From a virus (Duplodnaviria; Heunggongvirae; Uroviricota; Caudoviricetes), in IMG/VR virus record IMGVR_UViG_2524023210_000007, positions 16,429-80,428 of that record: a DNA stretch of 64,000 nt. One strand, 5' to 3'. Shown here one piece after another: positions 1,099 through 50,317 of the stretch; the stretch's first letter is position 1, and each line of letters begins with the position of its first letter. Made by a program: the position numbers and the translations under genes. Under the pieces are notes generated by a model, which did not search any database, had not been told where the DNA came from, and worked only from the letters and a program-made list of their open reading frames with translations.

Positions 1099-1835
1099 TG
1101 TCCACGTCCGACCCGCACGCCGGCGCCCATCTGGAGCACCTGTCGGATCTTTGCCTGGTAGTTCGGGTTAGCTGCGGCCTTCGGATGTGCCGCGAACGCT
1201 CGGTAGATCTCGGCGAGCGGCACAGGACCCCGCTGCGCGCGCATCCAAGCCACGATTGCCTCACGCCAGGTCGGCTCGATAGCCAGAACAACGACACTCC
1301 GCGGCAGTCGGAGAGGCACGAATGCCCCGTTCAGCCCGCAGAAGGCGAGCATCTCGGCGTCGCGCGGGCCGTAGGCGCAGAGCACCGACGGAGCGCCGGC
1401 GTTTGCGGCGCGGCCTGACTGCCGCTGCGCCGTCCCGCCGTCGACGGTGTGGAAGTCGAGCCGGCCGCGCAGGAAGAGCAGCGCGGATGCCTGTTCCCAG
1501 ACGTACCGGAAGAAGGCCTCGGTTTCGGTCCTGGCGAATATCAGCGCGATGCCACGACCGTGGCCGGACATCCGTGCCAACCACTTGCCAATGACGCTCC
1601 GATGATACGGCGGGTTGAGGAAGACTCGGCCGAACCACGGCAGAAGCAGCCCGTTGTCGCGGATGGTGTAATGGTGTGCGGCGGTCGGCCATGGCCGCAC
1701 AATCGGCGCGCACGGATCCAAATCAAACGGGCCCAGGGCTTTCAGCACCGCGGGCGGCGTCAACCACTCGTCGGTGCGAGTCCGCCGCGGCGTCTGGTGG
1801 GCGCCGATACCGGCAAAGAGCGGAGCGGTCGTCAT
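1083..1835 (-). CDS. phage DNA N6-adenine methyltransferase (Dam-like, pfam05869-type)
   Basis: LTPP...DLDPCA and FLNPPY motifs; ATGA overlap with upstream gene. Confidence 0.75.
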   Translation of the reverse strand: MTTAPLFAGIGAHQTPRRTRTDEWLTPPAVLKALGPFDLDPCAPIVRPWPTAAHHYTIRDNGLLLPWFGRVFLNPPYHRSVIGKWLARMSGHGRGIALIFARTETEAFFRYVWEQASALLFLRGRLDFHTVDGGTAQRQSGRAANAGAPSVLCAYGPRDAEMLAFCGLNGAFVPLRLPRSVVVLAIEPTWREAIVAWMRAQRGPVPLAEIYRAFAAHPKAAANPNYQAKIRQVLQMGAGVRVGRGQWSAS

Positions 1836-2023
1836 GCTGCGTTCCCAGCGTGTATTGCGCGTTGGAGAGCGCGGTTGACGATCTTGATGCGCTCAAGCTG
1901 GTACTTCGCGCTCCAACTCGCCTGAGCCTCGGCGATCTTCTTTGCTTCGGCATCACACTCCCGCATGAATGCGGCTTCGGCTGGCGTGAGGTGCTTCCGC
2001 CAATTCCACTTCTGCCTCTTCAC
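1832..2023 (-). CDS. small hypothetical protein (~63 aa)
   Basis: K/E-rich non-GC-skewed composition; GTG start overlapping kinase stop (GTGA), stop overlaps Dam start (ATGA). Confidence 0.4.
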   Translation of the reverse strand: MKRQKWNWRKHLTPAEAAFMRECDAEAKKIAEAQASWSAKYQLERIKIVNRALQRAIHAGNAA

Positions 2024-3753
2024 GGCGCCATCATCATCTGCCAAACGGCGCCGTCGATCAGGTAGACGATCCGCTCGCCCCAGGTCGCCAACTTCATCGC
2101 TGTGCTGACGCCGGTGTCGCGCACCTTGTTCACGACACCGGTGGTCGGCACAAAGATCGTGATCTCGAAATCATCGGTGATCGTGGCGACGACGCCGCGG
2201 GGCAGGATCGCCATATTGAGCTCGGGGCCGTCAGCCGGGCCGACCCATGCCTGGTAGCGGGTGAACGTCTTGTCGAAGGTGAGTTCGACCCTGCCGTAGA
2301 CACCCTGCTTATCGAGGACGGTGAAGGCCGCGAACTGGCTGCAGGCCTTGCCAGTGACAACGGTGCGGCCATCGAGTTCCGGCACCCGAATTTGTGAGAT
2401 GCCGCCGGCATGCGGCAGCACCACGAAGGCGTTGCCGAACACGTCGGTGACGGCGACGTCATCCAACCAGGTTGTGGCTCCGACCAGAATGTTCCAGCGC
2501 CGGTCCATGATCATCCGCGGTCGGCTGCCGGTATCGTTGAGCTCGAGCTCGATCAGTTCTCGGTCGGTTACTCCGAATAGGGTCTCGCCGGCCCGGAAGA
2601 CGCGCCGGAGCGGCACTGGCTGCGCGATAAACCTGCGACCGCCGGTGCCTCCAAATGGGATATGTGCGAAGTCGGTCGTGGTCGGGAGCGATATCACCCA
2701 GCCTTCCGGGACCTTGATGACCTCGGCATCGGCCGGCACCTGGTGCGCGATCGTGCCTCCGGTCGCCAGGTCGACGACTTCGCCGGACGTCAGCCGGGCG
2801 GCGCCATTCGCCCAGACTCGGGTGACGGGATCGCCGGCGCGTGCGAACAGATTCTCAAACACCAGAGCGCCGCCGGCTGCCGTCGTCACGGCGCGCATGA
2901 TCTGCGCGGCCTTCGCCGGCTTACCCATCGTGGTTGGCGCCGGCGGCGAGCCGCGCTTTCCATGTTGGAACGTCGCCTGGAACCAATCCAGCAGCGGGCC
3001 CGGAATGCAGGAGAAGCCACGGACCGACAGCGGCAGTTTCGCGCGCCGGTCGAAAACTGAGGCATTGTCCTTCATCCGCCGGACGAGATCGCCGGGTTTG
3101 TAGCCTTCAATCCTGCCCTTGTAGGGGTGGATGCCGGTGAAGACCTGGAAAGCGACGACCGCCCAGGCAAACCAATCAGTTTCGGTCGAGAAGGTTTTGG
3201 CGCTCCAGTCCCTGATGGACGGCATGATGACCGTCGCCGGCCAGCGGCCGATCGCCCAGGAGTCGACATCGATCACAGAGGCGGCCGCGGCATCCCCCTT
3301 CGTGAAGTGGACCAGCCAATTCAGTTCGTTGGCGTCGACCAGCAGGGCCTGCTTCGTGTGCGCATAGGCTACGATATCGAACATGCACTGGGTAAGCGCG
3401 ACGGCATCCCATTCACCGAACCCGGTCCGCGTCCGGTAATCCGAGACGAACACCCGCGACATCGGCTCGCCGTCGACGAACGGCATGTAGAAGCCGATCG
3501 GCTTCCCGGAGTCATCCAGCACCAGGCCGTGCGGAGCCACGATGCCGGGATGCTGCAGCCTGGCCAGCATCTTCACCTTCTCCGGCATGCCGTCGCGCGC
3601 CATCTTGTCGGCGTCGGTGTACAGTTTCACCACGGTCTGGCCGGTCCTGTAGATCGAACCTTCTCCGCCCGAGGTGACGTAGTCGCCGTCGCGTAGCGTT
3701 ACCGCACCGCGGCCCTCCAGAACGATCTTCACCGACCCTTTCCTCGAGGTCAT
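2020..3753 (-). CDS. Hanks-type Ser/Thr protein kinase with C-terminal beta-rich domain (TerY-P-type STK)
   Basis: Gly-loop GGEGSIY, VVKLY lysine, LVDANELNW catalytic-loop-like, DVDSW (DFG-like), TDWFAWAVV (APE-like); ATGA coupling upstream. Confidence 0.65.
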   Translation of the reverse strand: MTSRKGSVKIVLEGRGAVTLRDGDYVTSGGEGSIYRTGQTVVKLYTDADKMARDGMPEKVKMLARLQHPGIVAPHGLVLDDSGKPIGFYMPFVDGEPMSRVFVSDYRTRTGFGEWDAVALTQCMFDIVAYAHTKQALLVDANELNWLVHFTKGDAAAASVIDVDSWAIGRWPATVIMPSIRDWSAKTFSTETDWFAWAVVAFQVFTGIHPYKGRIEGYKPGDLVRRMKDNASVFDRRAKLPLSVRGFSCIPGPLLDWFQATFQHGKRGSPPAPTTMGKPAKAAQIMRAVTTAAGGALVFENLFARAGDPVTRVWANGAARLTSGEVVDLATGGTIAHQVPADAEVIKVPEGWVISLPTTTDFAHIPFGGTGGRRFIAQPVPLRRVFRAGETLFGVTDRELIELELNDTGSRPRMIMDRRWNILVGATTWLDDVAVTDVFGNAFVVLPHAGGISQIRVPELDGRTVVTGKACSQFAAFTVLDKQGVYGRVELTFDKTFTRYQAWVGPADGPELNMAILPRGVVATITDDFEITIFVPTTGVVNKVRDTGVSTAMKLATWGERIVYLIDGAVWQMMMAP

Positions 3754-3977: not shown

Positions 3978-4360
3978 CAGTAGTATTCCTCCGGCTCGTA
4001 GGGTTCGTAGACGTGGTGCTCGATGAGCCATTCCTCCATGCGCTCGCGCTCGGCTTCCGATAGGGCGGCCGGGAGTTCTCTAAGCCAGATCTCCAATCGC
4101 AGGATCTGAAGCGCCAGCCAGACAAATGGCTTCTTCCAGCCCGGGTGCCGGCTCCAGTGCAGATCGTTCCGGATCCCGCAAATGCGATCGAACTCCGACG
4201 AGTTCGGCCATGACGCTATGATGTAGACGTCGCACGGATCGCCGCCGTCGGCGCCAAACTTCGGCGAATAGGTGGTCTCACTTCCGGGCCGATAGCTGTA
4301 TTCGACCGTCACCTGGAAGCCGTTGTCCTTGCAGAAATTCTGGAAATAGGTCTGCGCCAT
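3977..4360 (-). CDS. hypothetical protein (127 aa)
   Basis: internal ATG (MAQTYFQNF...) with GAGG RBS; stop-start overlap with PP2C gene; natural amino-acid composition. Confidence 0.5.
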   Translation of the reverse strand: MAQTYFQNFCKDNGFQVTVEYSYRPGSETTYSPKFGADGGDPCDVYIIASWPNSSEFDRICGIRNDLHWSRHPGWKKPFVWLALQILRLEIWLRELPAALSEAERERMEEWLIEHHVYEPYEPEEYY

Positions 4361-5184
4361 CACACCGCCTCGTGGTCGATGTGGATGCAGGCCATCGCGA
4401 TGTCGTCGATCGGACCTCTGCCGTGCTGCTGGCAATCCTTGAGGAAGCGGAGCATCCGCCGTTTCACGAAAGTGCCCTCGGTTGACTTGAAAGACATGAG
4501 CTCGGCGACGACGTCGCGCCAGTCCATGCCGTCGACCTGGGTGACGCCGTCGGAGAACACGGCGAGGAATCTGAACATCCGCAAATCGTGGTCGATGCTG
4601 GTTCCGACGAGTCCGTCCTCGACCGTGTGGCGGGCAATAAGTTCGCGGGGATCTTCGTCAGGAGCAAAGATGTGCTGCGAGAAGGCCCTCGTCTCCATCC
4701 CGCCATGTGCCGTGACAAACCCGCGATACTCGTCGGTCCGCCAATAGGCACGGTAGACCGGCATATTGTTGGCCCACTCGATCCGGTTCATCACGAGTTG
4801 GCCATCTCGATCGATGCCGGCTGCGACGCCATCGCCTACAATCCGAGACGTCGCTCTGTTGCCCCAAATGGCAACGTAGGCGCATGTCGCCAGCAGATCA
4901 TCGGGTCGAAGACACAGTGCCGCTCGCGCGCGTTCATCGCGACGATGGCTATAATGATCGACAATGCGCTCATTCAACTCTGGCGCCTCTATCAGAGATG
5001 TCAGTGTGGAATGCGCGACGATTCTGGCTCCGACGTCAGTACGGCCGCCGCTCGAACAGCCGTCTGACACGACCGCGGCTCCGAAGATGCCGTTGGCTTG
5101 CGACAATGCGTAGTCCTGGCACGGCAGGCCGCCGCGGAGATGCTGCGATCCGATGTGAAAGGCGTGGTCGGCTGTGAAGCGCAT
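4360..5184 (-). CDS. PP2C-family Ser/Thr protein phosphatase
   Basis: PP2C motifs CQDY, VVSDGCSSGG, GDGVAAGIDRDG, FSDGVTQVDG, IDDIAM. Confidence 0.7.
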   Translation of the reverse strand: MRFTADHAFHIGSQHLRGGLPCQDYALSQANGIFGAAVVSDGCSSGGRTDVGARIVAHSTLTSLIEAPELNERIVDHYSHRRDERARAALCLRPDDLLATCAYVAIWGNRATSRIVGDGVAAGIDRDGQLVMNRIEWANNMPVYRAYWRTDEYRGFVTAHGGMETRAFSQHIFAPDEDPRELIARHTVEDGLVGTSIDHDLRMFRFLAVFSDGVTQVDGMDWRDVVAELMSFKSTEGTFVKRRMLRFLKDCQQHGRGPIDDIAMACIHIDHEAV

Positions 5185-9190: not shown

Positions 9191-9838
9191 TCACCGCGCG
9201 GCTCCATAAATCGCCTCGCGGACAGCGCGGCATTTCTCGATGTCGAACCGGTCGTCGGTCCGTACGCCGCTCTCCATGTCGATCCAGTACCGGCCGGGCA
9301 TCTGCTCGAGCACGGACATGACGCCACGAATATTCTCAGGGGATATGCCGCCGGCGTATCCGACTAGGCGGTTGCCGCCGGGATGCATGGGCCAGGCGGT
9401 CGGGGTCTCGCCGGTCCCACCAGAGCGGTCAAACAGCCAGTCGACTGAGGTGTCGCTCGGGAATTCGTCACCACGGCATTGCGCGATACCGCGCTTGATG
9501 CCCCAGCCGCTCCGGAAATAATTGATCCGTGCCGGAACCGGAGCGGCATGGTTGATTTGGCAGCGCTTGAAGTACCAGAAGTCGACGGGCGGCCGCTCGA
9601 TGTCGCGCCCTTCCATGATCGCGTCGCTGTAATCGCCGCAGATGTGCGCGGACAGGCGAAGATTGCTCCACATGATGCGGGACAAACCATCGCCACCCGG
9701 ATACCGCGGATCGACACCTTGACGCTTTGGGCTGAAGAGAACGCCCCACTCAATCGGATATAGCGAGGACAGATGTGCCATCGCTCGGACGCAGGTCCAG
9801 TTGTCGACACCGGCGAACGTGATGAATTCTGGCGTCAT
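9191..9838 (-). CDS. phosphoribosylanthranilate isomerase (TrpF)-like TIM-barrel protein
   Basis: TrpF-like motifs DRSGGTGETPTAW, GYAGGISPENI, WIDMESGVRT; ATGA overlap with radical SAM gene. Confidence 0.6.
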   Translation of the reverse strand: MTPEFITFAGVDNWTCVRAMAHLSSLYPIEWGVLFSPKRQGVDPRYPGGDGLSRIMWSNLRLSAHICGDYSDAIMEGRDIERPPVDFWYFKRCQINHAAPVPARINYFRSGWGIKRGIAQCRGDEFPSDTSVDWLFDRSGGTGETPTAWPMHPGGNRLVGYAGGISPENIRGVMSVLEQMPGRYWIDMESGVRTDDRFDIEKCRAVREAIYGAAR

Positions 9839-10674
9839 GCTGGCGCTCCATGATGCTGCTGGACGCGCAACGGGTTGTGGTAGCCCGTTGGCAAGTGTTC
9901 CTGCAGGTCCCGCTTGACGTAGTGCTTCACGCCGAGCGCCTGGCAGACCTCGATGATGCGGAGGGTGTAGTCATGCCAATCAATCGACCTCGCGACCTTC
10001 GGCACGTAATTCACCTTTCCAATTTTGTAGAGGTCGACGAATTCATGGGTCTCCTTGATGATCGCGATCGACGACTCCGCGGACAGCGTCGGCTCGAGCG
10101 ACACCCAGGTGAAGATGCCGGCTTCGTAGAACCGGCGCAGCGTCTCGATACGGTCCCATGGCAGCGCCGCTTTGCGCTCCCATTCCTTCGAGATCGCGCC
10201 GTCCAGAGTCGTCAGCGTGCAAGCGTAGGCGTCGCGGTCGCGGCGGTAGAGGTCGATGAAGGGGAGGGCGCGGCCACCACCTTTCGACAACGTGCAGAAC
10301 GCCATCCCGCCATCAATCAGAGCCCTGATAGTCAGTTCGGTATGCGCCAGGTCCCCGAGATGAAAGGGATCGCTGGAGAAGGTGATGAAGATCTGCTCAT
10401 TCGGTCCGCCAGCAACGCCGGCGGTTCGGTAGCGGACAATGTCGCGGCGAAGACGTTCAAGATAGCCTGGCCGCGGCTCTGCCTTTTCATTGAACGTGTC
10501 ACGAGGGATGTGCGTTGCGAGCGGGACATAGCAGTAGAGACACTCATGACCGCAACCGCGATAAGGATTAGTGGCCAGCGGCGCATATTCGCCGGCGTTA
10601 CCCTTCGGTCGATAGATCACGTCCGCGCCGGGCACGACGGGCTGATCAGCAAAGTATCCATCCGCCGTGATCAT
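9835..10674 (-). CDS. radical SAM protein, SplB/spore-photoproduct-lyase-like (COG1533-type)
   Basis: NPYRGCGHECLYCY (CX3CX2C) near N-terminus; start at internal ATG (MITADGYF) overlapping upstream stop (ATGA). Confidence 0.7.
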   Translation of the reverse strand: MITADGYFADQPVVPGADVIYRPKGNAGEYAPLATNPYRGCGHECLYCYVPLATHIPRDTFNEKAEPRPGYLERLRRDIVRYRTAGVAGGPNEQIFITFSSDPFHLGDLAHTELTIRALIDGGMAFCTLSKGGGRALPFIDLYRRDRDAYACTLTTLDGAISKEWERKAALPWDRIETLRRFYEAGIFTWVSLEPTLSAESSIAIIKETHEFVDLYKIGKVNYVPKVARSIDWHDYTLRIIEVCQALGVKHYVKRDLQEHLPTGYHNPLRVQQHHGAPA

Positions 10675-10676
10675 CA

Positions 10677-10883
10677 GACGTCGTGCCTCGGGCAGCCATG
10701 GACCCAGTCGGCGCCAACCTGCGTCGCCTTCCAGCCTTCGCGTTTCGCCCGCGACCAAAAGACGTTCCAGTCCTCGCCGTGCTCCGCCTGGACGATCTCG
10801 TCGCAGGAGTCGCACTCGACGACATGATGGCCGTGCTGGAAGTCCTTCACTTCGTGGCTCCTTCTGGCGCCGCGTCGGTCCAT
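10677..10883 (-). CDS. small Cys/His-rich (zinc-binding?) protein, 69 aa
   Basis: track ORF; HGHHVVECDSCDE...HGCPRH; stop coupled to radical SAM start. Confidence 0.35.
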
Positions 10884-11146
10884 TCCTTGTCGCGGCGGGT
10901 TTGCTCGAGCTTGGCGAGATAGGCCTCACGGAACTGCGCGAATGTCTCGAATTCACGGGGATCGTCGCGAAGCTTGAAGACGTCCCGCGATTGTCCGGCG
11001 TTTCGTCCGGTGCCGAGCCACGACGACAGCGAACCGATTACCTCGCCGCCTTCGTCGAGAAGGTCGTGACCGTAAGTGGAGCCACCGGTGGCGCGGATAT
11101 GAAGCACCAAGCGCCGTTGGATGATGGGTTTGGCAGAATCCGTCAT
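10847..11146 (-). CDS. hypothetical protein
   Basis: internal ATG (MTDSAKPII); ATGA overlap with upstream gene. Confidence 0.4.
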   Translation of the reverse strand: MTDSAKPIIQRRLVLHIRATGGSTYGHDLLDEGGEVIGSLSSWLGTGRNAGQSRDVFKLRDDPREFETFAQFREAYLAKLEQTRRDKEWTDAAPEGATK

Positions 11147-17947: not shown

Positions 17948-18024
17948 GAACTGAAATTGGTTGCGGAGACAGGATTCGAACCTGTGACCTTCTGGTTATG
18001 AGCCAGACGAGCTACCGTGCTGCT
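17948..18024 (-). tRNA. tRNA-Met (anticodon CAT; could instead be the lysidine-type Ile2)
   Basis: Cloverleaf read directly from sequence: acceptor TGCGGGG/CTCCGCA, D-stem GAGC/GCTC, anticodon stem TCTGG/CCAGA with loop CTCATAA, T-stem ACAGG/CCTGT, T-loop TTCGAAT. Discriminator A followed by an encoded CCA. Confidence 0.75.
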
Positions 18025-18056
18025 CCACCCCGCAAAACTGGTTGCCGCTGCCGACA

Positions 18057-20621: not shown

Positions 20622-20907
20622 TGAAGCCGTGGCCGCCCTGGCTCCTGCAGTGCGAGCAGAAGAGGTGAGACCCGAGCATGTCGATCGTCGTGTCTGGAGA
20701 GATCCCGTAATATTCAACATCGTCTTCGGTCCAGACCGTACCGTGACCACAATCGCTGCATGAAATTTCGAGAAAAGGCTGCGAGACAACGGTTTTCGCA
20801 GTATTGCCGCCCATGAACGCCCCGGTATCGACTGGTTGTTTTGGGGCATGATTAAATCGTTTTGGGCGAGAGTCGAATCGATTCTTGGGCGACTATCTTT
20901 GGTAGAG

Positions 20908-21630
20908 TCAGCCCTCACCGGTGCCCACGATCTTGTGGACTGAAACCACGCTCGAGCGACGGAAACGCATCTCGCGATCTTCGCCTTCCGGTGGGTTCAA
21001 TTGCTCCACGACTAATTCCGTAGCGCTATACCGCTTGAACCGCTTAACGTATCCTGAGAACTCGCCGTCGTCTTCGCGGATCTTGATAACGACATCATCG
21101 CCAGGAGCGACGGGCCGGTGCGGATTGACGTGGAGTATCTCTCCAGGCCTGAACCGCTCAAGCATGGAGTCGCCATGCGCGTAAACGGCGTAGGCATCGT
21201 TGACAGCTTCCAAGCTCGGCGGAGCGAAAATCTCACCGACCTGGTGCTCGTTGAGGATGAATCGCCCGTTCCCGATGTCGCCCATCACAGCCTGTCCCCG
21301 GATAGGTATTCTTTGCCGCGTTTGCCTCGGAAGCGGCGGAGCAGATGAAGCATTGGGGGCGGCCCGTCCCGGTCGTTGCGTCGGAGCGGAGAGTGGCGGA
21401 GCGGCCTGCGCGCTGCCTTCGCCGTCGGCAATGAACTCGACCGTCGAGTTAAGCACTTTGGCCAATGCGACCAGGTTCTTGCTGTCGATCCCCTTGTTGA
21501 GCTCCCAGTTACCGACTGCTCCGCGCGTGATCTTGGTCCTGGTCTCGCGCGAAATCTCGTCGGCGAGCTCTTCCTGCGTGAGCTTCGCCACCTTCCTTAA
21601 GTGTTTGATCCGAGAGCCAATAGTGTTCAT
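20908..21630 (-). CDS. CI/LexA-like phage repressor (HTH_XRE + S24 peptidase)
   Basis: HTH IKHLRKVAKLTQEELADEI, S24 motifs GDSM and VKRF; divergent from cro-like gene. Confidence 0.8.
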   Translation of the reverse strand: MNTIGSRIKHLRKVAKLTQEELADEISRETRTKITRGAVGNWELNKGIDSKNLVALAKVLNSTVEFIADGEGSAQAAPPLSAPTQRPGRAAPNASSAPPLPRQTRQRIPIRGQAVMGDIGNGRFILNEHQVGEIFAPPSLEAVNDAYAVYAHGDSMLERFRPGEILHVNPHRPVAPGDDVVIKIREDDGEFSGYVKRFKRYSATELVVEQLNPPEGEDREMRFRRSSVVSVHKIVGTGEG

Positions 21631-21713: not shown

Positions 21714-22010
21714 ATGGCCGACACGCACCGAAAATCCGCCGACGAGATCAAAACCGCCGCTCTCCGAAAGGTGAAATCCGCCTTCCGGGGCGCCACGGGC
21801 CTGTCTCGCGCGCTTGCGGAGCGCGGTACCAAGCGGCCACCCAGCCCCCAGGCTATCTCGCAGTGGGAGCAAGTGCCGGTCGAGCGCGTCGCCGACGTTG
21901 AATCGGCCACGGGAATCTCTCGTCACCTGCTTCGGCCTGACATCTACGGCCTGCCGAATGACCCCAGCCTCGTGGACTCGCTCTTCGAAGAAGCCGGGGC
22001 GGAGGGCTGA
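21714..22010 (+). CDS. Cro/YdaS-like HTH regulator
   Basis: GATGLSRALAERG...ISQWEQVPVERV...TGISRHLLRPDIY matches YdaS/Cro-type HTH. Confidence 0.65.
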   Translation: MADTHRKSADEIKTAALRKVKSAFRGATGLSRALAERGTKRPPSPQAISQWEQVPVERVADVESATGISRHLLRPDIYGLPNDPSLVDSLFEEAGAEG

Positions 22011-22555: not shown

Positions 22556-22900
22556 TCATGATGGTTGCTGTCCGTACAACACGCGCAGGGACGCCGCCTT
22601 CGTCGCCAGCCTCGTCGCCTGGTCGATCAGTTCCGGTGCCCGGATTGCCCAATGCGTGTCGGTTCGGCCGCTGGCGTGCATCAACAGGCGTGCCGAAAGG
22701 CGGTCGAGCATGACCGCGGCGCAACTCTTCGGCACCAGCCCGCCATCGATCAGCATCTGCAGCATCGCGTCGAAGGATTCCTCCGCGATCAGCATCCGTG
22801 TTCCGGCCAGGGCGGCGCGCGCCCAGTCATCGTCTTTGATGTCGATCGCCACCGGCGCGGCAATCTCGTTTTTCCTCGGGAAATAGGGGGTGTTCATCAT
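22556..22900 (-). CDS. hypothetical protein (antisense to operon; start uncertain)
   Basis: track ORF 22556..23014 has natural composition, whereas the overlapping plus ORF is R-rich; no clear SD. Confidence 0.3.
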   Translation of the reverse strand: MMNTPYFPRKNEIAAPVAIDIKDDDWARAALAGTRMLIAEESFDAMLQMLIDGGLVPKSCAAVMLDRLSARLLMHASGRTDTHWAIRAPELIDQATRLATKAASLRVLYGQQPS

Positions 22901-23330
22901 GGGAACAACATCGCTCAGCATCGGTCCCGGAGCAAGGAACCACGCTGCAGCTTCCCGCAGTGCCGATTGCAGGAAGCTGCAGTCAGGCAAATTAACCGCT
23001 GAAATCATTCGCATTTCTCAGAACGCGATAAAGGGCGGCAGCTTTCGAAAGATCCTTGCCGACCGCGCGAAGTGCTCGCTGCGTACGATCGATGCGTGGA
23101 TATCGCGCGAGAGCCCCATGGGCTTAGAGCATGTGTTCAATGTGCTCGATGGGCCGGATGGTGTCGCTTGCCTCGAAGCCTTCTGGGAGCAAGTGCCGGA
23201 GCACGTTCGCGATCGATTCCTGGAGCGCCAGATCCTCGAACGAGAACTTCGCGAGGCCGAAGAGAAGATCCGTCGGGTGCGGCGCCAGAGCGAAGACCTC
23301 CAGATCACCATGGACTTGAAGCGGCGTTGA
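22899..23330 (+). CDS. hypothetical regulatory protein
   Basis: AGGGGG RBS 8 nt before ATG; possible HTH KILADRAKCSLRTIDAWI; coiled-coil C-terminus. Confidence 0.45.
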   Translation: MGTTSLSIGPGARNHAAASRSADCRKLQSGKLTAEIIRISQNAIKGGSFRKILADRAKCSLRTIDAWISRESPMGLEHVFNVLDGPDGVACLEAFWEQVPEHVRDRFLERQILERELREAEEKIRRVRRQSEDLQITMDLKRR

Positions 23331-23575
23331 CTGTGTACGCGCCGCGCGGCTCGCGGCAATCGAGTTTCTACAGGTTCACCGTGTTCGACACTCTTGCCGC
23401 GATCGCTGCCATCATCGCGGGTTTCTGCAAGCAGCGGACAGACCGCCATGCCGAGCGCGGCGAATTGTGGTCGGCGCGCGCCTGGCTTTGGCTAGATATC
23501 GAACGCTGGCTTCGCCTTCGCTGCGTGAAGACGCTCGCGGAAATTCGCGCCAACCGCGAGGCCATGAAGCGATGA
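23327..23575 (+). CDS. small membrane protein (TTG/GTG start)
   Basis: TTG overlaps preceding stop; TM segment FTVFDTLAAIAAIIAGF; N-terminal part of track ORF 23072..23575 is R-rich and rejected. Confidence 0.3.
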   Translation: MTVYAPRGSRQSSFYRFTVFDTLAAIAAIIAGFCKQRTDRHAERGELWSARAWLWLDIERWLRLRCVKTLAEIRANREAMKR

Positions 23576-24168
23576 CGGAATTGACCTGGACCGACGAACG
23601 CGTCGAACAACTGAAGAATCTTTTCGCGGCCGGACTTTCCTCGAGCCAGATCGCTGCCGAACTCGGCGGAGGCATCAGCCGCAATGCCGTAATCGGCAAG
23701 GTTCATCGGCTTGGGCTCAATGGCCTCCCGCGGAAAGAGCCGTCGCCGGCGCCACGCGCTGGAAGGCGGCCATCCACCAAACGGTTTATTCGCATCGAGC
23801 GACCAGAGCCCAAGAAAGAAATCATTGTCGATGAGCATGCCGCGAACATGCCCGATGTGATCAATCCGGATGCGGTCAGCGCATTCGATGCCACGATTCC
23901 GGTCGCGCGTCGCAAGGGTCTCATGGATCTGCGGAAGTGTGATTGTCGGTGGCCGGTCGGAGATCCTGCGTCCCCGGATTTCTTCTTCTGCGGTGGCCCT
24001 ACCAAGAGCGGTTTGCCGTACTGCGAGCCTCATTGCCGCGTCGCATATAAGGATGCGGCCCAGCGGCGCCAGGAGCGGGGGCTACTTTCATCCGAGGAGA
24101 AGGCTCGTCGCGTCATGCAAGGAAAGGCACGCGCCGAGCGGATGCGCAGACAGGCGGCCGCAGAATGA
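23572..24168 (+). CDS. gcrA: GcrA-family cell-cycle regulator
   Basis: WTDERVEQLKNLFAAGLSSSQIAAELGGGISRNAVIGKVHRLGL and C-terminal C.W..GDP...FFFCG...GLPYC GcrA signature. Confidence 0.8.
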   Translation: MTELTWTDERVEQLKNLFAAGLSSSQIAAELGGGISRNAVIGKVHRLGLNGLPRKEPSPAPRAGRRPSTKRFIRIERPEPKKEIIVDEHAANMPDVINPDAVSAFDATIPVARRKGLMDLRKCDCRWPVGDPASPDFFFCGGPTKSGLPYCEPHCRVAYKDAAQRRQERGLLSSEEKARRVMQGKARAERMRRQAAAE

Positions 24169-24401
24169 CCGCCCCGACCATCATGCAGGACTATGCCCGC
24201 AAGGAGTGCATTGTATCGCTTATGGTGGTCGAGCATGCCGGTGGCAAGGCCGCGGCCAACTTGGTCGTCGAAGCTCACCTTCAAGCAATCGCAACCTACC
24301 TCAAGGGTTCGATCGGCCCGCGCGCGGCCTACGACGTTTTCAGCAGGCATGCCGACGAGATCATTCGGCCGACCCTTGATAACTCGAGGGCGGCACCATG
24401 A
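24165..24401 (+). CDS. hypothetical protein (78 aa)
   Basis: track ORF; ATGA overlap with gcrA stop. Confidence 0.4.
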   Translation: MTAPTIMQDYARKECIVSLMVVEHAGGKAAANLVVEAHLQAIATYLKGSIGPRAAYDVFSRHADEIIRPTLDNSRAAP

Positions 24402-24754
24402 TGGGTCTTACCGCGGTCCAATCACGCTGCTTGGTGTTCGTGCGCGACCGGATTGCGGAGCGCGGCGTGTCACCTTCGTACCGGGAAATCGCCGATCACC
24501 TCGGTATCAAGAGCAAGGGACAGGTCTCGAAGATCGTCGACGAGCTCGCCACGCGAGGCGCCCTGGTCCGGATCCGCAACAAGGCCAGGACGCTGGCGCT
24601 GCCTGAGCCCGTCGCCGGATCTGGTCTCCTCGTCAAGCCGCATCCGGAAGTTCGCCGGGCAATCGAGGCCTACGCGCGCCAGCACCACATCAGCGTCCGG
24701 ACGGCAGCCGAAGAGGCCCTCCATGTCTATTTTGTGGATGCGGCCGCCCAATGA
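24398..24754 (+). CDS. LexA N-terminal DNA-binding-domain-like protein (no peptidase domain)
   Basis: LTAVQSRCLVFVRDRIAERGVSPSYREIADHLGIKSKGQVSKIVDELATRGALVR resembles LexA_DNA_bind winged helix. Confidence 0.55.
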   Translation: MMGLTAVQSRCLVFVRDRIAERGVSPSYREIADHLGIKSKGQVSKIVDELATRGALVRIRNKARTLALPEPVAGSGLLVKPHPEVRRAIEAYARQHHISVRTAAEEALHVYFVDAAAQ

Positions 24755-25127: not shown

Positions 25128-25796
25128 ATGATCATCAACATCGATCACTTGAAGCGTTTGGCTGCAGACCCTAGCCACGCACTCGAACTCGGTAAGGCCG
25201 CCGAGCACATCGTATGTGCCGATTTGATCCTGAAGGGGTATCGCTGCTACCTGAGTGATCAGGGCCTCCCATATGATCTCGTCGTCGACCTCAAAATCCG
25301 GCTTATTCGGGTCCAGGTAAAGGCCTGCTGCTTTGCGCGCGGACGCAATGCCGGCCGTAAAGAACTGAGGTTCGCCTACTCGTGGAGTATCCGCCAGCGC
25401 GGGCGAGGTCGAAAGGGAGCGCGCCTGAGCGCCGAGCACTGTGATGTTGTGGCGCTCGTCGCGCTCGACATCGGCGTCACCGCATATCTTCCACTCGAAC
25501 TCTGTGGGCAAGGACTACGGCTCGAGCCGCCTGGTTCGCCGCTAAGCGCTTCGTTCACCTCTGGATCGCGATGGGCTCGAAATGTAGACCAATTTCCTTT
25601 CGAGGAAGCGATCGGAGGTGATCTGTCAAGCTACAAGGCAAGCCGCGGCGCGCACACGCATTGCATCCATGGGCACGAACTGACAGCCGATAACATCTAT
25701 GTTGACGCTCGCGGCAACCGCCTGTGCCGCAAATGCATCAGCGCGCGTAGCAAGTCCTATCTGGAGCGAAAGCGAGCCAAGGGAGCTCAAGAATGA
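25128..25796 (+). CDS. nuclease fusion: PD-(D/E)XK-like N-domain + HNH C-domain
   Basis: GKAAEHIVCADLILKGY...YDLVVDL...IRVQVKA (Hjc-like) and CIHGHELTADNIYVDARGNRLCRKC (HNH). Confidence 0.5.
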   Translation: MIINIDHLKRLAADPSHALELGKAAEHIVCADLILKGYRCYLSDQGLPYDLVVDLKIRLIRVQVKACCFARGRNAGRKELRFAYSWSIRQRGRGRKGARLSAEHCDVVALVALDIGVTAYLPLELCGQGLRLEPPGSPLSASFTSGSRWARNVDQFPFEEAIGGDLSSYKASRGAHTHCIHGHELTADNIYVDARGNRLCRKCISARSKSYLERKRAKGAQE

Positions 25797-26473
25797 GCAC
25801 CTGGTATTTCGACCCGCTCCCGATGTTCGGATTTGACGTAGTGGACGTTGACCCTCCGACGCACTTCCAACTTTATTCCGAGAAGGGCAACAGAAAGTCG
25901 GCATCGGCACAGTACGACATCATGTCGTGGGATGATCTGGCAAAGATGCCGGTTGGCCATCTCGTGCGCGGCAACGGCATCATCACGCTTTGGGCTTGCC
26001 CACCGACGCTCGAGCAATCGCTTTGGCTGTTGAGACAGTGGGGCGCCCGCTTCAAGACTGAGCTCGTGTGGCCAAAGGGGCGCATGACGACGGGCTATCG
26101 GTCGCGCGGCATGCACGAGTCCGTTTTGCTCGGCGTGTTCGGCGACGAGCACCAGATCCACGACGCGCTTTACGGCGTGATCAAGGGTAAAGCGCGCGGT
26201 CATTCCCAAAAGCCGCGCGAGTGGTACGCGCACCTCCGCAAGAAGACGCCGGGCCTCAGCCGGTTGTGCCTTTTTTCGCGTGAAAGCCATGAGGGATACA
26301 CGCACTGGGGCAACGAGGTCGGCCTACTCGACAACGATGTGAAGCTCGCTCGTCAGCAGAAAGAGAAAGTAATCGCGCCGACGCCTCTCTTCGATCGATT
26401 GGGAGAGGCGGCCCCGACCAGCGGATGCATCGAGCCTATCGAATTCGCGCGAGCGAATGAACTGCTGTTGTAA
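25793..26473 (+). CDS. MT-A70-family adenine methyltransferase
   Basis: VVDVDPPT (DPPW-like), ELVWPKGRMTTGYRSRGMHESVLLGVFG, SQKPREWY. Confidence 0.65.
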   Translation: MSTWYFDPLPMFGFDVVDVDPPTHFQLYSEKGNRKSASAQYDIMSWDDLAKMPVGHLVRGNGIITLWACPPTLEQSLWLLRQWGARFKTELVWPKGRMTTGYRSRGMHESVLLGVFGDEHQIHDALYGVIKGKARGHSQKPREWYAHLRKKTPGLSRLCLFSRESHEGYTHWGNEVGLLDNDVKLARQQKEKVIAPTPLFDRLGEAAPTSGCIEPIEFARANELLL

Positions 26474-35883: not shown

Positions 35884-36524
35884 TCACGCGAAAGGAGGCG
35901 GCGCAGGCGAACCTCAAACGCTTCTTTACCGGGAAACCTTGTCGCAATGGGCACGTTGCCGAGCGATTTGTCTCATGCAGCAAATGCGTCGCCTGCGGCA
36001 CTGATCAGAATCGCCGCAACGTGCAGTATCGAAAGGACCGATACGCGCGGCTGCGCGATACGCTGATCGTCAACAGCCGAGCTTATTACGCGGCCAACGC
36101 TGAGCGCCTTCGGGCGTATCGCCGGGACTATTTCACAAGGAACAAGGAAGCCTGCTATCGCTCAGCGATCGATTGGCGCGCCCGTAACCGGCGTCGTCTC
36201 CGTCAATACTACCGCGAATACAAGCGGAACCATCCGCTCCACACCAGGACGGTTTGGCACAACCGACGCGCCAGAAAGGTCGGCAATGGTGGCACGCACA
36301 CCAATGCCGACATCCTGCTGATAGTACGAGAGCAGAAAAACAAGTGCGCCTACTGCCGGCGTGCGCTGACAGGACTGCGCTGGCATCGCGATCATATCAT
36401 CCCGCTCGCGTTGGGCGGGACAAACGATCGGATAAATATTCAGGTGCTTTGCCCGCCGTGCAATTGGCGGAAGGGGGCAAAAGACCCGATCGAATTTGCT
36501 CAATCCATGGGGCTCTTGCTTTGA
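35874..36524 (+). CDS. HNH endonuclease with N-terminal zinc finger
   Basis: CAYCRR...HRDHIIPLALGGTNDRINIQVLCPPCNWRKG. Confidence 0.7.
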   Translation: MQLITRKEAAQANLKRFFTGKPCRNGHVAERFVSCSKCVACGTDQNRRNVQYRKDRYARLRDTLIVNSRAYYAANAERLRAYRRDYFTRNKEACYRSAIDWRARNRRRLRQYYREYKRNHPLHTRTVWHNRRARKVGNGGTHTNADILLIVREQKNKCAYCRRALTGLRWHRDHIIPLALGGTNDRINIQVLCPPCNWRKGAKDPIEFAQSMGLLL

Positions 36525-37837
36525 CAGTTCGGATTATCAATGGGGACAGCAGGTCGGTGGTGCGCGGTCTTGAGCCAGGCTCGATCCATGCCTGCGTTTG
36601 CTCGCCGCCGTATTTTCGGCTTCGCGACTACCAAATGCCCGGACAGATCGGGCTCGAGTCATCGCCCGAGGCCTACGTCTCCGAGCTCGTCTCGCTCTTC
36701 CGCGACGTCCGCCGCGCGCTGCGCGACGACGGCTCGCTCTGGATAAACATCGGCGATTGCTATGCTGGCTCCGGACGCGGCGGCAATCCCGCAGCCGGCT
36801 CGTCGACGCTGCTCGGCACGCTCCAATCACAAGAGGCCTCCATGATCGTGCGCGAGCGCTGGGAGATCGGTGCCAGCTCGAGGAAGGCGGCCAACACGGA
36901 GCGGGGCAGCCGCTTGCCGGCCGGCCTTCAGGAGAGGGCGCGCCAGAATAGTGCGATCGGTCGGGCCTGGGAGCCGCCGCCCGCTGGGCTCAAGCAGAAG
37001 GATCTCATCGGCATTCCATGGATGTTGGCATTTGCGCTGCGCGCCGACGGCTGGTGGCTGCGCAAGGACAATATCTGGGCCAAGCCGAACGGGATGCCGG
37101 AGTCTACCCGCGATCGGTCGACCAGCGCCCACGAATACGTTTTTCACCTAACGAAGTCGGAACAATACTACTACGGCTATGAGGACGTGAGGCTGCCGCC
37201 CGCGCCGGAGTCAGTCTCCCGGCTAGCGCGCGCGATGCGCGGCCGCCTTGAAGAAGGCGGTCTCGTGGTCAGCGGCGGCGGGTACGCGCCGGCTGGACAG
37301 CCACCGCACACCGGCGCCCGGCGGCGCGATCGCCAGCGGGGACACAGCCGACGTCATGCGGGATTCAATGACCGCTGGGATGGAATGTCGGTGGCGGAAC
37401 AGCGGGCGAAGGGCGCCGCGCTGCGCTCGGTCTGGTGGGTGGCGCCGGGCGGCTTCAATGACGAATTCTGCACGAAGTGCCGAGCGTTCTACCCGAGCGC
37501 GGAGGTAGGCGACCTAAGAACCGAGAAGGTTGAGCGCGACGGCCGGAAACTGACGCTGCGGTACTGCCGATGCGGGGCGTGCGATAGCTGGCTGAACCAT
37601 TTCGCCGTGATGCCGCCGGAGGTCGCGGCGACGTGCATCCTGGCTGGCGTCCCGGAAGGAGGCTCGGTCTTGGATCCGTTCGCCGGCGCCGGCACCACCG
37701 GCCTGGTGGCCGACCAGCTTCAGCGTAACGCTGTTCTTATCGAACTGAACGGAGACTACGCAGAGATGGCAGCGCGCCGATTCGGCGCGCTGCATCCGAT
37801 GCTGACGAAGGTTGAGCTCGAGCGAGCACCAGCATGA
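36521..37837 (+). CDS. beta-class N6-adenine (or N4-cytosine) DNA methyltransferase, CcrM/HinfI-like, with Zn-finger insertion
   Basis: motif IV CSPPYF near N-terminus and motif I VLDPFAGAGTTG near C-terminus; TTG start overlapping HNH stop. Confidence 0.7.
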   Translation: MTVRIINGDSRSVVRGLEPGSIHACVCSPPYFRLRDYQMPGQIGLESSPEAYVSELVSLFRDVRRALRDDGSLWINIGDCYAGSGRGGNPAAGSSTLLGTLQSQEASMIVRERWEIGASSRKAANTERGSRLPAGLQERARQNSAIGRAWEPPPAGLKQKDLIGIPWMLAFALRADGWWLRKDNIWAKPNGMPESTRDRSTSAHEYVFHLTKSEQYYYGYEDVRLPPAPESVSRLARAMRGRLEEGGLVVSGGGYAPAGQPPHTGARRRDRQRGHSRRHAGFNDRWDGMSVAEQRAKGAALRSVWWVAPGGFNDEFCTKCRAFYPSAEVGDLRTEKVERDGRKLTLRYCRCGACDSWLNHFAVMPPEVAATCILAGVPEGGSVLDPFAGAGTTGLVADQLQRNAVLIELNGDYAEMAARRFGALHPMLTKVELERAPA

Positions 37838-46576: not shown

Positions 46577-48877
46577 CTATCCCGGCGGCCCGTCGATCAC
46601 CACCAGCGCGGTATTCACCATCGTGCCGGCAGACTTGAACGAGCCGGCGGGCAGCGGCCTATATTCGAGAGCGATCGGCTCAAGGCGCGCGCGCTGCCGC
46701 GGGCCGTCGGCGCAGATCGCGACGAGCCGGCCGCCAGGCCGCAAGAACGTGCGGGCGTGCTCAATATGCCGGATATCGTCGCCATCCTTGAATGGCGGGT
46801 TCATCAAGACGCGATCGAACTTGCCGAGCTCGTCCGTGCTGCACTTGAGGAAGTTAGCGCAGTGAATGCGCAGGCCGCTAACTGGCGCACTGGCCAGGGC
46901 CTGCACCAATTGCGGGTTGATCTCGACCGCCACCTTATCGGGCGCTGGACCAATCGCCCGGAGGAGGGCGCCGGTTCCAGCGCTCGGCTCCAGGACACGA
47001 TGATCGGGCTCGATCTCGGCGAACTCGACGACGTCAGCGGCCAGCCTCGGCGGCGTTTCGAACAATTGCGGTGCGACGACAACTTGCACGCCGCCGCCGC
47101 GCAGCACCGCCCGCATGGCCTCAAAATCAGCCGTAGGCGAGGGAGGCGGCAAATCGGCCGTATCCGGGAGAGGGTCGAGCGCGGGCGCATCCGGCAGGCT
47201 GCAATCCAACGCGCTGCGCAACTCGTCGATCTTAACCCATCTCCACCCTTTGCTGCCATTAAGGCAGGCGGTTTTCAGCTCAACAAAACCATCCTCGGTT
47301 CGAAGCACTTCGCAAGACTCGCCTTGAAAAGTGAAGCGGTCGCCTTTGGTGAAAGCGAGCGCGGCCGCATCCAGGGTCATCGCCCGCGGGACAGGGTGCG
47401 GCTCGGCCATGATCTCGCCGACCGTCGCCAGCATGTCGTCAAGATCGACCGCGGGCGGCGCGACATACACCGCCACGAATTCGGCCGGCTCCTTCGGCTC
47501 CGCGGGCCGCGCGATCTTGGGCGGGTCGACGCGCTTTGCATCCGTGATGAAAACTTGCTGTTTCTTCCAGAACTCGCCAGGCACCGGCATTTGGCGGACA
47601 CGGTGCGCGCCGTGGGTCTCGGTCTCCTTCACCTTGCCGATATACGGGAAATCAGAGAACTGCCGGCGCGCCTTCCATTCGGCTTCCGTCATCTCGCGGA
47701 ATCCCTCGCCAGGATAGTTGCAGATCGGCGGGAGCTTGGCGGCGGCCTTCGCCGCGGCGACGTTCTCCGCGCTCGGTGCCCGATAATCGCGGATGCTTTC
47801 CACGCTCCAGCGCGCTTGCTTGGAGCGCGATCCGGCCGGCGCGGTCGTCGTCATGCTGGAAACCGAACCGTTGGCGCCCCTGTTGACCTTCAGCACCGTA
47901 AGCCATTCGTCGCCGCGGCGGGTCTGCACCTGACCGCCGACCGCGAAGGCGAAGCGGTCCGCAAGCGGGTTGGCAGTCGCCTCCGTGCCGATCTGCTCGG
48001 CCAACATCGCCCGTTCATAGGCCAGCCGGTTGTCATAGTGCGCCATCCAACGGTCCCGCCGAGGCCCTGAGCGTTCCAGGCTCGGAATCGCAATGGCGGC
48101 AGCCTGCGCGGCGGTGATGACGTTCCCGTCAATCGCCGACCAAAGGCCCATCGGTCCCTCATACTGCGAGGCCGGCGGGTCGCGCGGATAGTCGGCCAGC
48201 GGAAACGACATCGACCAATAACCGCCGATGTTGGCCACGGCCAAACCGGCGGCGCGCTGCCTCCCGGGGTCCGTGATGCCGGCGACGATCTGCCAGCCCT
48301 TCAGCTGCCTTTCGGTCTCCGCCTGCTGCTTCTCCAGCTTCCGCTTGTCGGACTCAATGCCCTTGATGCGGCGATGACGCACCGCCGGCAACTCCTTATA
48401 CTTCGCATGAGCGAGGGCGCCGGCGGCTCGCGCCGTCCAATAATTCGAGGTGTCCCAGAGTTTCAGCGCCTTCCGCATGCCGTTGTCCATGCGTTCTTTG
48501 TCTTTTCGCGCGCTCTTCTCCGAGTGATGGCCGACGAGGATGGGCTGCCCAAACGCGAAGCGTTCGGCGATTTGGTCGACCGCGTCGCGGGCGCGGTTGG
48601 CTTCGGCCAAGCGCTTGTCGCTGTACTCCTCGAAGCGGTCGGCGCGCTGCTCGGCGCGATCTACAAGGCTTGTGTCCTCGTCGCCGATCTCACCGCAGAG
48701 CTCAATCAGCAAATCTTCCCGGCTTGGCGTCCAGGTCGGCGCGACGAAAAGCCCCTGTTTCGGCGCCCACTTGAAGCCGGCGGCTTTCACGCGCGCGTAT
48801 GTCTCGGGATCGAGGCGCGAGACGGAATAGAGGCGAAGGCGGTTGTCGTCAGGGCAATAAGTAGCAGTCATGGTCAT
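46577..48877 (-). CDS. large fusion protein: ~600-aa conserved N-terminal region (ICE/plasmid-type, DUF3560-like?) + C-terminal gamma-class N6-adenine MTase
   Basis: C-terminus: motif I VLEPSAGTGALL, motif IV NPPF; AAAGGAG RBS 8 nt before ATG (MTMTATY); family-1 repeat pair encoded in-frame as linker. Confidence 0.6.
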   Translation of the reverse strand: MTMTATYCPDDNRLRLYSVSRLDPETYARVKAAGFKWAPKQGLFVAPTWTPSREDLLIELCGEIGDEDTSLVDRAEQRADRFEEYSDKRLAEANRARDAVDQIAERFAFGQPILVGHHSEKSARKDKERMDNGMRKALKLWDTSNYWTARAAGALAHAKYKELPAVRHRRIKGIESDKRKLEKQQAETERQLKGWQIVAGITDPGRQRAAGLAVANIGGYWSMSFPLADYPRDPPASQYEGPMGLWSAIDGNVITAAQAAAIAIPSLERSGPRRDRWMAHYDNRLAYERAMLAEQIGTEATANPLADRFAFAVGGQVQTRRGDEWLTVLKVNRGANGSVSSMTTTAPAGSRSKQARWSVESIRDYRAPSAENVAAAKAAAKLPPICNYPGEGFREMTEAEWKARRQFSDFPYIGKVKETETHGAHRVRQMPVPGEFWKKQQVFITDAKRVDPPKIARPAEPKEPAEFVAVYVAPPAVDLDDMLATVGEIMAEPHPVPRAMTLDAAALAFTKGDRFTFQGESCEVLRTEDGFVELKTACLNGSKGWRWVKIDELRSALDCSLPDAPALDPLPDTADLPPPSPTADFEAMRAVLRGGGVQVVVAPQLFETPPRLAADVVEFAEIEPDHRVLEPSAGTGALLRAIGPAPDKVAVEINPQLVQALASAPVSGLRIHCANFLKCSTDELGKFDRVLMNPPFKDGDDIRHIEHARTFLRPGGRLVAICADGPRQRARLEPIALEYRPLPAGSFKSAGTMVNTALVVIDGPPG
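47123..47174 (-). repeat. boundary repeat family 1 pair embedded in-frame inside the fusion ORF
   Basis: encodes ...LDPLPDTADLPPPSPTADFEAMRAV... just upstream of the MTase domain; coordinates approximate. Confidence 0.5.
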
Positions 48878-48896
48878 AGTGGTTGCTCCTTTCATC

Positions 48897-48912
48897 TTGC
48901 GCACAATCGCGC
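48897..48912 (-). repeat. palindromic repeat family 2 (TTGCGCACAATCGCGC) upstream of RBS
   Basis: 12-28 nt upstream of the 46577..48877 start, directly 5' of its SD. Confidence 0.55.
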
Positions 48913-50300: not shown

Positions 50301-50317
50301 TTGCGCACAATCGCGCG
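50301..50317 (-). repeat. palindromic repeat family 2
   Basis: TTGCGCACAATCGCGCG 5' of the SD of gene 50080..50283. Confidence 0.55.

Follow-up and report, generated by a model that had tools for sequence, protein, structure and literature searches.

A phage GcrA gene with a LexA-derived neighbour and an adenine methyltransferase gene: a candidate early-gene cassette of temperate alphaproteobacterial phages

We analysed a 64-kb stretch of DNA from IMG/VR virus record IMGVR_UViG_2524023210_000007 (hereafter the window, on whose numbering all coordinates are given), in which a gene for a GcrA homologue is followed two genes downstream by a gene for a LexA-like DNA-binding protein and, further along the same strand, by a gene for a DNA methyltransferase (MTase) of the MT-A70 family. 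The whole window is phage DNA, with a CI/Cro switch, DnaB, and terminase, portal, protease and capsid genes, the last four at its right end. Its source is a temperate Bradyrhizobium-type phage; the nearest named homologues are from Bradyrhizobium, and deposited phage genomes gave no DNA-level match (megablast, 20 kb of the window). Two contigs, one of 59 kb and one of 0.2-1 Mb, carry identical GcrA and LexA-like proteins, which suggests an integrated prophage. We read the region, with an expectation a little short of even, as a conserved early-gene cassette of temperate alphaproteobacterial phages and not as a set of separate stolen host regulators. The genes on which the argument turns are the following.

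23572..24168 (+), phage GcrA, 198 residues, with an N-terminal helix-turn-helix (HTH) of the type that reads N6-methyladenine (m6A) in GANTC and a C-terminal domain of the type that interacts with sigma70 region 2 (Pfam, PDB, residue mapping)
24165..24401 (+), 78-residue protein (g78) with no assigned family, overlapping each neighbour by 4 nt
24398..24754 (+), LexA-like protein, 118 residues, with a LexA-derived winged helix (residues 1-68) and a probable ribbon-helix-helix (RHH)-like C-terminal module (residues ~76-115), two genes downstream of GcrA
25793..26473 (+), MT-A70-family DNA adenine MTase (Pfam MT-A70 PF05063, E=8.7e-18, 65.3 bits against a cut-off of 23.9; PHROG phrog_359, E=3e-37)
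36521..37837 (+), beta-class N6_N4 MTase that carries SPPY and has ~180 residues inserted (Pfam N6_N4_Mtase, E=2.7e-38)

The first-pass annotation of this DNA had called a full GcrA homologue with both signature regions, which is borne out by a nearly full-length Pfam match (GcrA PF07750, E=1.9e-45, 155.5 bits against a cut-off of 26.9, model positions 2-153 of 155) and by matches to structures of Caulobacter GcrA, one along the entire chain (7ye1, E=2.3e-30) and two more to its separate DNA-binding (5yiu, 6.7e-14) and sigma-interacting (5yix, 3e-10) domains. Residue roles were taken from Wu et al. (PMC5887438) and mapped through the alignment with Caulobacter GcrA. The seven Caulobacter residues reported there to contact bases or form the two methyl pockets (R33, N34, I37, G38, K39, H41 and R42) are all identical in the phage protein (R37, N38, I41, G42, K43, H45 and R46). 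The same study found that substitution of W120, G129, F130, F132, Y142 or Y151 in the sigma-interacting domain broke the sigma70 interaction; five of these six are kept, and the position of G129 is occupied by Asp. With 127.1 bits the protein falls below the cut-off of 280 for the NCBIfam GcrA equivalog (NF050816) and is thus a family member, not a host orthologue. Phage GcrA genes have been on record since phiCbK (2012) and are known from phiCbK-like phages (phiCbK gp222), Agrobacterium phage Atu_ph08 (gp5) and phiLM21-like prophages; 29 deposited phage genomes carry GcrA homologues, which are 30-32% identical to the one in the window. None of the papers that we found on phage GcrA homologues reports a tested function. 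A motif in the C-terminal tail of GcrA was considered as a correlate of having a LexA-like partner and was set aside, as it is confined to the Bradyrhizobium-type lineage and one further locus (L009, below).

The LexA-like protein matches Pfam LexA_DNA_bind over residues 1-65 (E=1e-12), and in an AlphaFold model (predicted local distance difference test, pLDDT, 89.7) its N-terminal domain superposes on the DNA-binding domain of E. coli LexA (Foldseek, 3jso) with a root-mean-square deviation of 1.2 A over 66 residues. There is no Pfam match to Peptidase_S24, and the chain ends at residue 118. The S24 domain of LexA carries the Ser-Lys dyad and the Ala-Gly cleavage site, and its loss leaves the phage protein with neither a self-cleaving domain nor the LexA dimer interface. 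The earlier description of a LexA N-terminal winged helix without S24 is therefore accurate for the first half of the protein, but incomplete, since a conserved two-helix module occupies residues ~76-115. The model shows this part as an extended segment followed by two helices (block-mean pLDDT 94-98 over residues 81-110), and the family alignment resolves into a winged helix-turn-helix (wHTH), a linker and a conserved C-terminal module, 'V.L.PEVR....YA....IS..TA..EALR.YF'. The module aligned with Arc/Mnt/CopG (hhalign probability 72.7%, E=3.2e-5, against hand-entered reference sequences), and in some family members it has Pfam RHH_1 and Antitox_RHH matches below threshold; it is likely to be an RHH-like dimerisation module.

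An exhaustive HMMER search returned 2517 cluster representatives at E<=1e-3, of which the best 150 are nearly all 85-165 residues long, many aligned over their full length, and are not the 200-230-residue LexA proteins. The LexA-like protein belongs to a widespread separate family, whose members have roughly 110-120 residues. Its mean identity is 41% to the alphaproteobacterial LexA DNA-binding domain and 29% to E. coli LexA; the family probably descends from the former. Other architectures of the same wHTH, with domains assigned by eye, place it after a MUG113/T5orf172-like domain, after a Cys/His-rich N-terminal region, or in a tandem duplicate (P0103, P0068, P0036 and P0099), and the LexA-derived wHTH is being shuffled among phage early proteins.

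The first-pass annotation took this protein for a phage copy of host LexA, an uncleavable DNA-binding domain that would sit on host SOS boxes and keep SOS genes off or titrate the boxes. Its LexA-type fold speaks for such a role, as do the N-terminal matches to Pfam and to the LexA equivalog TIGR00498 (44.4 bits, against a cut-off of 110.95), the closeness of the family to the alphaproteobacterial domain noted above, and the few family members that keep the LexA helix core SKSG[IV]HR. A comparison with genuine lexA genes, eight in all, of Bradyrhizobium and other Alphaproteobacteria points the other way. The protein is 37% identical to the Bradyrhizobium-type LexA DNA-binding domain over 70 residues, and its recognition helix, KSKGQVSKIVDELATRG (KSKGQVSKIV), differs at four exposed positions from the host helix RSKSGIHRLITALEERG (RSKSGIHRLI), which is identical in all eight genes. 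Recognition-helix positions vary widely across the LexA-like family, a pattern that suits phage-specific operators better than a fixed host box. GTTC-N7-GTTC boxes number zero in the window, where 1.3-1.4 would be expected per orientation, and none is consistently placed near related cassettes. The protein thus shares the N-terminal winged-helix fold and sequence family of the LexA SOS repressor, but it differs in lacking the S24 peptidase and with it the dimer interface, in its recognition helix, in the C-terminal module that stands instead, and in a genomic context defined by GcrA and not by SOS or repair genes. The claim of a host LexA copy cannot be sustained on this evidence, and we consider action at host SOS boxes very improbable.

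That context recurs across lineages. Six related IMG/VR prophages (L003-L008) have the conserved order CI, MUG113, g113, g143, GcrA, g78, LexA-like, optional wHTH, MT-A70, g179, g190, DnaN, with g78 70-75% identical and MT-A70 69-75% identical to the window proteins. Distant LexA-like members, 37-43% identical to the window protein, lie in the following contexts.

P0019 / L009, GcrA, gene for an 83-residue protein, LexA-like, MT-A70
P0042 / L011-L013, GcrA, LexA-like, gene for a 72-residue protein, DPPY N6_N4 MTase
P0030 / L094, GcrA and LexA-like, overlapping
P0060 / L095, GcrA, LexA-like, MT-A70
P0081 / L180, GcrA and LexA-like, with no MTase
P0023 / L181, GcrA and LexA-like
P0069 / L177, a 319-residue GcrA::LexA-like fusion, then a DPPY MTase
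P0049 / L179, LexA-like without GcrA upstream

The LexA-like gene directly follows a phage GcrA gene in eight of the nine informative contexts sampled, once as a fusion, and the GcrA stop and LexA-like start codons often overlap; two further contigs were too short to judge. The 83-residue protein of L009 is 44% identical to g78, which occupies the same position and has no match in Pfam, PHROG or PADLOC. As a control we used 80 ordinary LexA-type metagenome loci, at none of which was GcrA found within 3 kb. These loci, retrieved through their LexA-type DNA-binding domain, are mostly true LexA genes of 213-280 residues; they came from a metagenome scan for more contexts of the family that was swamped by such genes and was then reused. 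Around 80 IMG/VR viral GcrA loci, in turn, the two families most often met as neighbours on the same strand are MT-A70 (15 loci) and LexA-like (13 loci); at another 18 loci an N6_N4 MTase lies no more than 5 kb away.

An MTase gene lies zero to two genes after the LexA-like gene, of the MT-A70 family in the window, L003-L009 and L095 and of the DPPY N6_N4 family in L011, L012 and L177; the use of either family in the same downstream slot amounts to non-orthologous replacement. Linkage of the LexA-like gene to an MTase was seen in five of six informative contexts. Of the MTase genes in the window, the one in synteny with GcrA is MT-A70 (25793-26473), overlooked in the first-pass annotation. Its product matches the PDB entry 'MT-a70 family protein' 7f4r at 4e-14, and the alignment to 7f4r gives its catalytic motif as DPP-TH-F, in which two residues are inserted ahead of the aromatic one by comparison with the DPPW type. 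The MTase that had been singled out instead, at 36521-37837, was described as CcrM-like. It has SPPY ahead of FAGAGTTG, which is the beta-class order (motif IV before motif I), and to that extent the description stands; beyond class it does not, with 65.2 bits against a cut-off of 830 for NCBIfam CcrM (NF050803) and the SPPY enzyme TTHA0409 (2zie), not CcrM, as the best solved relative. SPPY is a typical motif among N4-cytosine enzymes; that of CcrM is DPPY. The first-pass annotation placed this gene further along the same operon, a putative assignment, as the gene shares the strand of the GcrA string but is separated from it by non-coding gaps of 235 and 358 bp along the way, and it was not found beside GcrA in the fetched stretches of other lineages. 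The three proteins are real, but the picture of separate phage copies of GcrA, LexA and CcrM falls away.

The position of the LexA-like gene directly upstream of the MTase, with MT-A70 starting only 3 nt past it in L004, L005 and L007, could also mean that the protein is a controller (C-protein-like) or autoregulator that times the downstream MTase or the cassette alone, with no functional tie to GcrA, the adjacency reflecting shared early-operon ancestry. Small HTH controllers upstream of restriction-modification genes are a known design, and the presence of two MTase families in the same slot would fit it. L180, though, keeps GcrA and the LexA-like gene without an MTase, the linkage to GcrA (eight of nine contexts and the fusion) is at least as tight as that to the MTase (five of six), and the DNA upstream of the cassettes yielded no repeated operator. 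We regard the controller reading as unlikely.

The surroundings of the cassette in the window comprise these further genes.

20908..21630 (-), CI-like prophage repressor, HTH_3 and Peptidase_S24 (Pfam on an identical Logan contig; PHROG phrog_4 'transcriptional repressor', E=7e-29)
21714..22010 (+), small Cro/YdaS-like HTH protein, divergent from CI (gene call, Pfam and PHROG searches)
22899..23330 (+), 143-residue HTH-like protein (g143), first gene of the plus-strand string that holds GcrA, conserved in L003-L008
24751..25125 (+), 124-residue protein in which an N-terminal coiled coil precedes a winged helix of OmpR/Trans_reg_C type (Pfam Trans_reg_C, E=1.8e-5; its 25.1 bits fall slightly short of the cut-off of 26.2)
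25128..25796 (+), PD-(D/E)XK_5 and HNH nuclease, between the LexA-like gene and MT-A70 (Pfam, PHROG)
1083-1835 (-), PF05869 Dam-like MTase
46577-48904 (-), DUF3560 and MTase (MTS) domain protein, in a minus-strand block that also holds a DUF932 protein (51126-52004)

The first-pass annotation had also passed over the CI-like gene, that of the 124-residue protein and the two further MTase-like genes. With the CI-like gene comes the immunity switch, which lies upstream of the cassette. Between 23327 and 26473 neighbouring genes overlap or adjoin within a few bases, so that GcrA, g78, LexA-like, Trans_reg_C-like wHTH, PDDEXK/HNH nuclease and MT-A70 form one tight string. The g143 profile matches a 138-residue protein upstream of GcrA in L011 (E=4.8e-8), itself 32% identical to a 176-residue protein upstream of GcrA in L180. 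On its other side g143 abuts a divergent minus-strand gene (22556-22897, 72-79% identical in relatives) across a gap of 1 bp, so that the promoter of each must lie inside the other. The 124-residue wHTH protein has no receiver domain and no PDB sequence match, and among L003-L008 it is present only in L006 and L008, as an optional member of the cassette; it is the second output-domain-only regulator of the gene string. The nuclease gene is missing from its position in all six related prophages, in which MT-A70 directly follows the LexA-like gene or that of the 124-residue protein, and it is probably a mobile (homing-type) nuclease insertion. PADLOC gave no defence-system match for GcrA, g78, the LexA-like protein or the 124-residue wHTH protein.

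Downstream, the plus-strand early and replication string continues with a gene for the DNA polymerase III beta clamp (DnaN), a DUF7146 primase-like gene and DnaB. The LexA-like gene lies upstream of all three, and in L179 it follows a protein that resembles DnaA domain IV (judged by eye, with no family search), which together would suit a winged-helix protein of the replication module that binds the origin or organises the replisome. However, the LexA-like protein has neither an ATPase domain nor a known initiator domain, the DNA nearby yielded no iteron-like repeats, and the gene is tightly coupled to GcrA while the helicase and primase genes lie ~10 kb away in the window. A role at the origin is accordingly rated as highly improbable.

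Elsewhere in the window, the left arm encodes a weak protein-kinase-like protein (faint PADLOC PD-T4-6), a PP2C-type phosphatase and, under the Pfam cut-off, a weak match of radical-SAM type (2020-3753, 4360-5184 and 9835-10956, all on the minus strand), a signalling or modification gene set that is unusual for a phage. A tRNA-Met (CAT) gene lies in the early-left region (17958-18034, -), and Sinorhizobium phage phiLM21 also carries a tRNA-Met(CAT). At the right end the adjacent genes 59406-60455 and 60614-61951 (+) both match the Phage_capsid family.

Turning to the sites that a phage GcrA might read, GANTC is under-represented in the window (176 sites, against 319 +/- 20 expected) and 1.7-fold denser in intergenic DNA; scarcity with intergenic density is the usual alphaproteobacterial pattern. 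One group of sites is placed as follows.

20870..20909, cluster of four GANTC sites (GAGTCGAATCGATTC and GAGTC), two of the four fitting YGAKTCK, located directly 3' of the CI stop codon

A GANTC pair or cluster (TTGAATC-N11-GAGTCGA) is found at the same place in the related prophages L003-L008, and the cluster may act as a promoter sensitive to methylation or as an antisense element. A scan for sigma70-type promoters over 20.5-24.5 kb found nothing. A search of intergenic DNA for repeated 9-mers and inverted repeats recovered probable CI/Cro operators, together with motifs between 41 and 53 kb, and nothing attributable to the LexA-like protein. Two of the repeated motifs are candidate phage promoter or operator elements: GCGCGATTGTGCGCAA, just upstream of the ribosome-binding site of three minus-strand genes (48897, 50039 and 52652) and also at 50301 and 52396, and CCGTTGATAG, in three intergenic regions (41135, 48946 and 53177), each near GANTC sites.

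These sites bear on the possibility that phage GcrA mainly reprograms host genes, for instance with host replication functions raised or the cell cycle shifted, and that its neighbours are unrelated early functions. Such a role is the published hypothesis for phiCbK gp222 and Atu_ph08 gp5. DNA-contact residues identical to those of host-type GcrA predict the same YGAKTCK/GANTC targets, and GcrA motifs are not clearly enriched in phage intergenic DNA. It nevertheless leaves the conserved partner gene, the fusion and the recurrent MTase unexplained, and the GANTC cluster is conserved beside a phage immunity gene. As the main role of the protein we find host reprogramming quite unlikely; it is compatible with the cassette explanation, not exclusive of it.

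The cassette explanation that we prefer has as its observed basis the domain identities, the conserved contact residues, the cross-lineage synteny, one fusion, and the replacement of one MTase family by another in the same slot; from these we infer the specificity of the MTase, dimerisation of the LexA-like protein, its physical or functional partnership with GcrA, and the target promoters. The C-terminal domain of phage GcrA would bind the housekeeping sigma factor, and its N-terminal HTH would read m6A-marked GANTC-type sites as Caulobacter GcrA does. The adjacent adenine MTase, MT-A70 here and a DPPY beta-class enzyme in other lineages, would maintain the methylation of fast-replicating phage DNA without reliance on host CcrM, which is cell-cycle-restricted. 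The 118-residue protein, a LexA-derived wHTH with an RHH-like tail, would be a dimeric, non-cleavable, sequence-specific DNA-binding partner that guides polymerase loaded with GcrA to phage promoters or sets the timing of cassette expression, with no mimicry of the SOS repressor. In its fullest form this would be a self-contained phage 'write, read and target' system, in which the phage methylates its own replicating DNA, GcrA loads on host sigma70, and the dimeric partner binds both GcrA, as the natural GcrA::LexA-like fusion suggests, and phage operators, bringing polymerase to middle or late phage promoters. That complete scheme we hold to be rather unlikely.

Several observations weigh against the cassette reading. 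The Asp at the position of Caulobacter G129 is one, given that G129D abolished the sigma70 interaction of Caulobacter GcrA in a two-hybrid test (PMC5887438), although D or N is usual there in the phage homologues aligned. YGAKTCK, the motif that GcrA prefers, is not clearly enriched, with five intergenic sites at 0.77/kb against 0.54/kb in coding DNA. The synteny has a sole negative context, L179, in which no GcrA gene lies upstream, and in L180 the MTase is missing; the fusion comes from a single contig and may be an artefact of a frameshift. A LexA-like partner is present at only 13 of the 80 phage GcrA loci, so that GcrA does not need one. Several of the lineages may share one broad phage supergroup, in which case part of the synteny would be inherited and not selected. 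The window itself holds four MTase-like genes of four families (PF05869 Dam-like, MT-A70, SPPY N6_N4, and DUF3560 with MTS), and co-occurrence of GcrA and an MTase in the window alone therefore means little. Nor can MTase specificity be read off characterised relatives: those MT-A70 enzymes of phages and transposons that have been characterised are specific for GATC (PMC7556043) and distant, the GANTC enzyme p027 of phiLM21 is unrelated to both the MT-A70 and the SPPY enzymes of the window, and the MTase of L011 is nearest to a DpnA-like enzyme of H. pylori, not to CcrM, so that no inference is possible.

The closest known system is the GcrA/CcrM module of Caulobacter crescentus, with which the phage genes share a two-domain GcrA, identity at all base and methyl-pocket contacts, most sigma70 contacts and an adenine MTase encoded alongside. 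They differ from it in lying in one overlapping string, in the low equivalog score of GcrA (127 against 280 bits), in an MT-A70 enzyme that is not a CcrM orthologue, in the extra wHTH-RHH partner and in the Asp at G129; to our knowledge, host gcrA and ccrM have not been described as a gene pair. With the GcrA homologues of phiCbK (gp222), Atu_ph08 (gp5) and phiLM21-like prophages the window protein has in common a phage-borne Pfam GcrA domain and a proposed part in manipulating transcription, but it is only 30-32% identical to those in deposited phage genomes and lies in a temperate early operon with a LexA-derived partner and an MTase. Several alphaproteobacterial phages carry GANTC-specific MTases beside their replication modules, as shown experimentally (PMC5537653). 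Like the window, these temperate phages (phiLM21 p027, Phi2LM21_p21, Phi3LM21_p21 and the Paracoccus prophage enzymes) have an orphan m6A MTase gene just upstream of the replication module; their enzymes, from Sinorhizobium and Paracoccus phages, belong to another family (NPPF/Y/W motif) with no detectable similarity to the MT-A70 or SPPY enzymes of the window. A literature search found no paper that links GcrA with MT-A70 or describes the cassette or a LexA-like partner of phage GcrA. Phage GcrA itself is already known, and what is added here is a subset of GcrA genes that travels with a dedicated LexA-derived partner and an adenine MTase.

A functional parallel is offered by AsiA and MotA of phage T4, where a phage sigma70-binding protein and a separate phage sequence-specific DNA-binding protein together retarget host polymerase. 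The likeness is an analogy of function only, with no homology: GcrA binds sigma region 2, whereas the T4 system engages region 4, and cooperation between GcrA and the LexA-like protein is a proposal. The LexA-like family is an example of a LexA DNA-binding domain joined to another C-terminal module in place of the peptidase domain, and it carries a warning for annotation: Bradyrhizobium genomes label proteins of this kind 'LexA family protein' or 'SOS-response repressor LexA', although they are no SOS repressors. The cassette provides a concrete, testable model of how temperate alphaproteobacterial phages could couple transcription to DNA methylation independently of the host cell cycle, and the 'write, read and target' scheme, if true, would represent a DNA-methylation-based form of sigma appropriation distinct from that of T4 AsiA/MotA.

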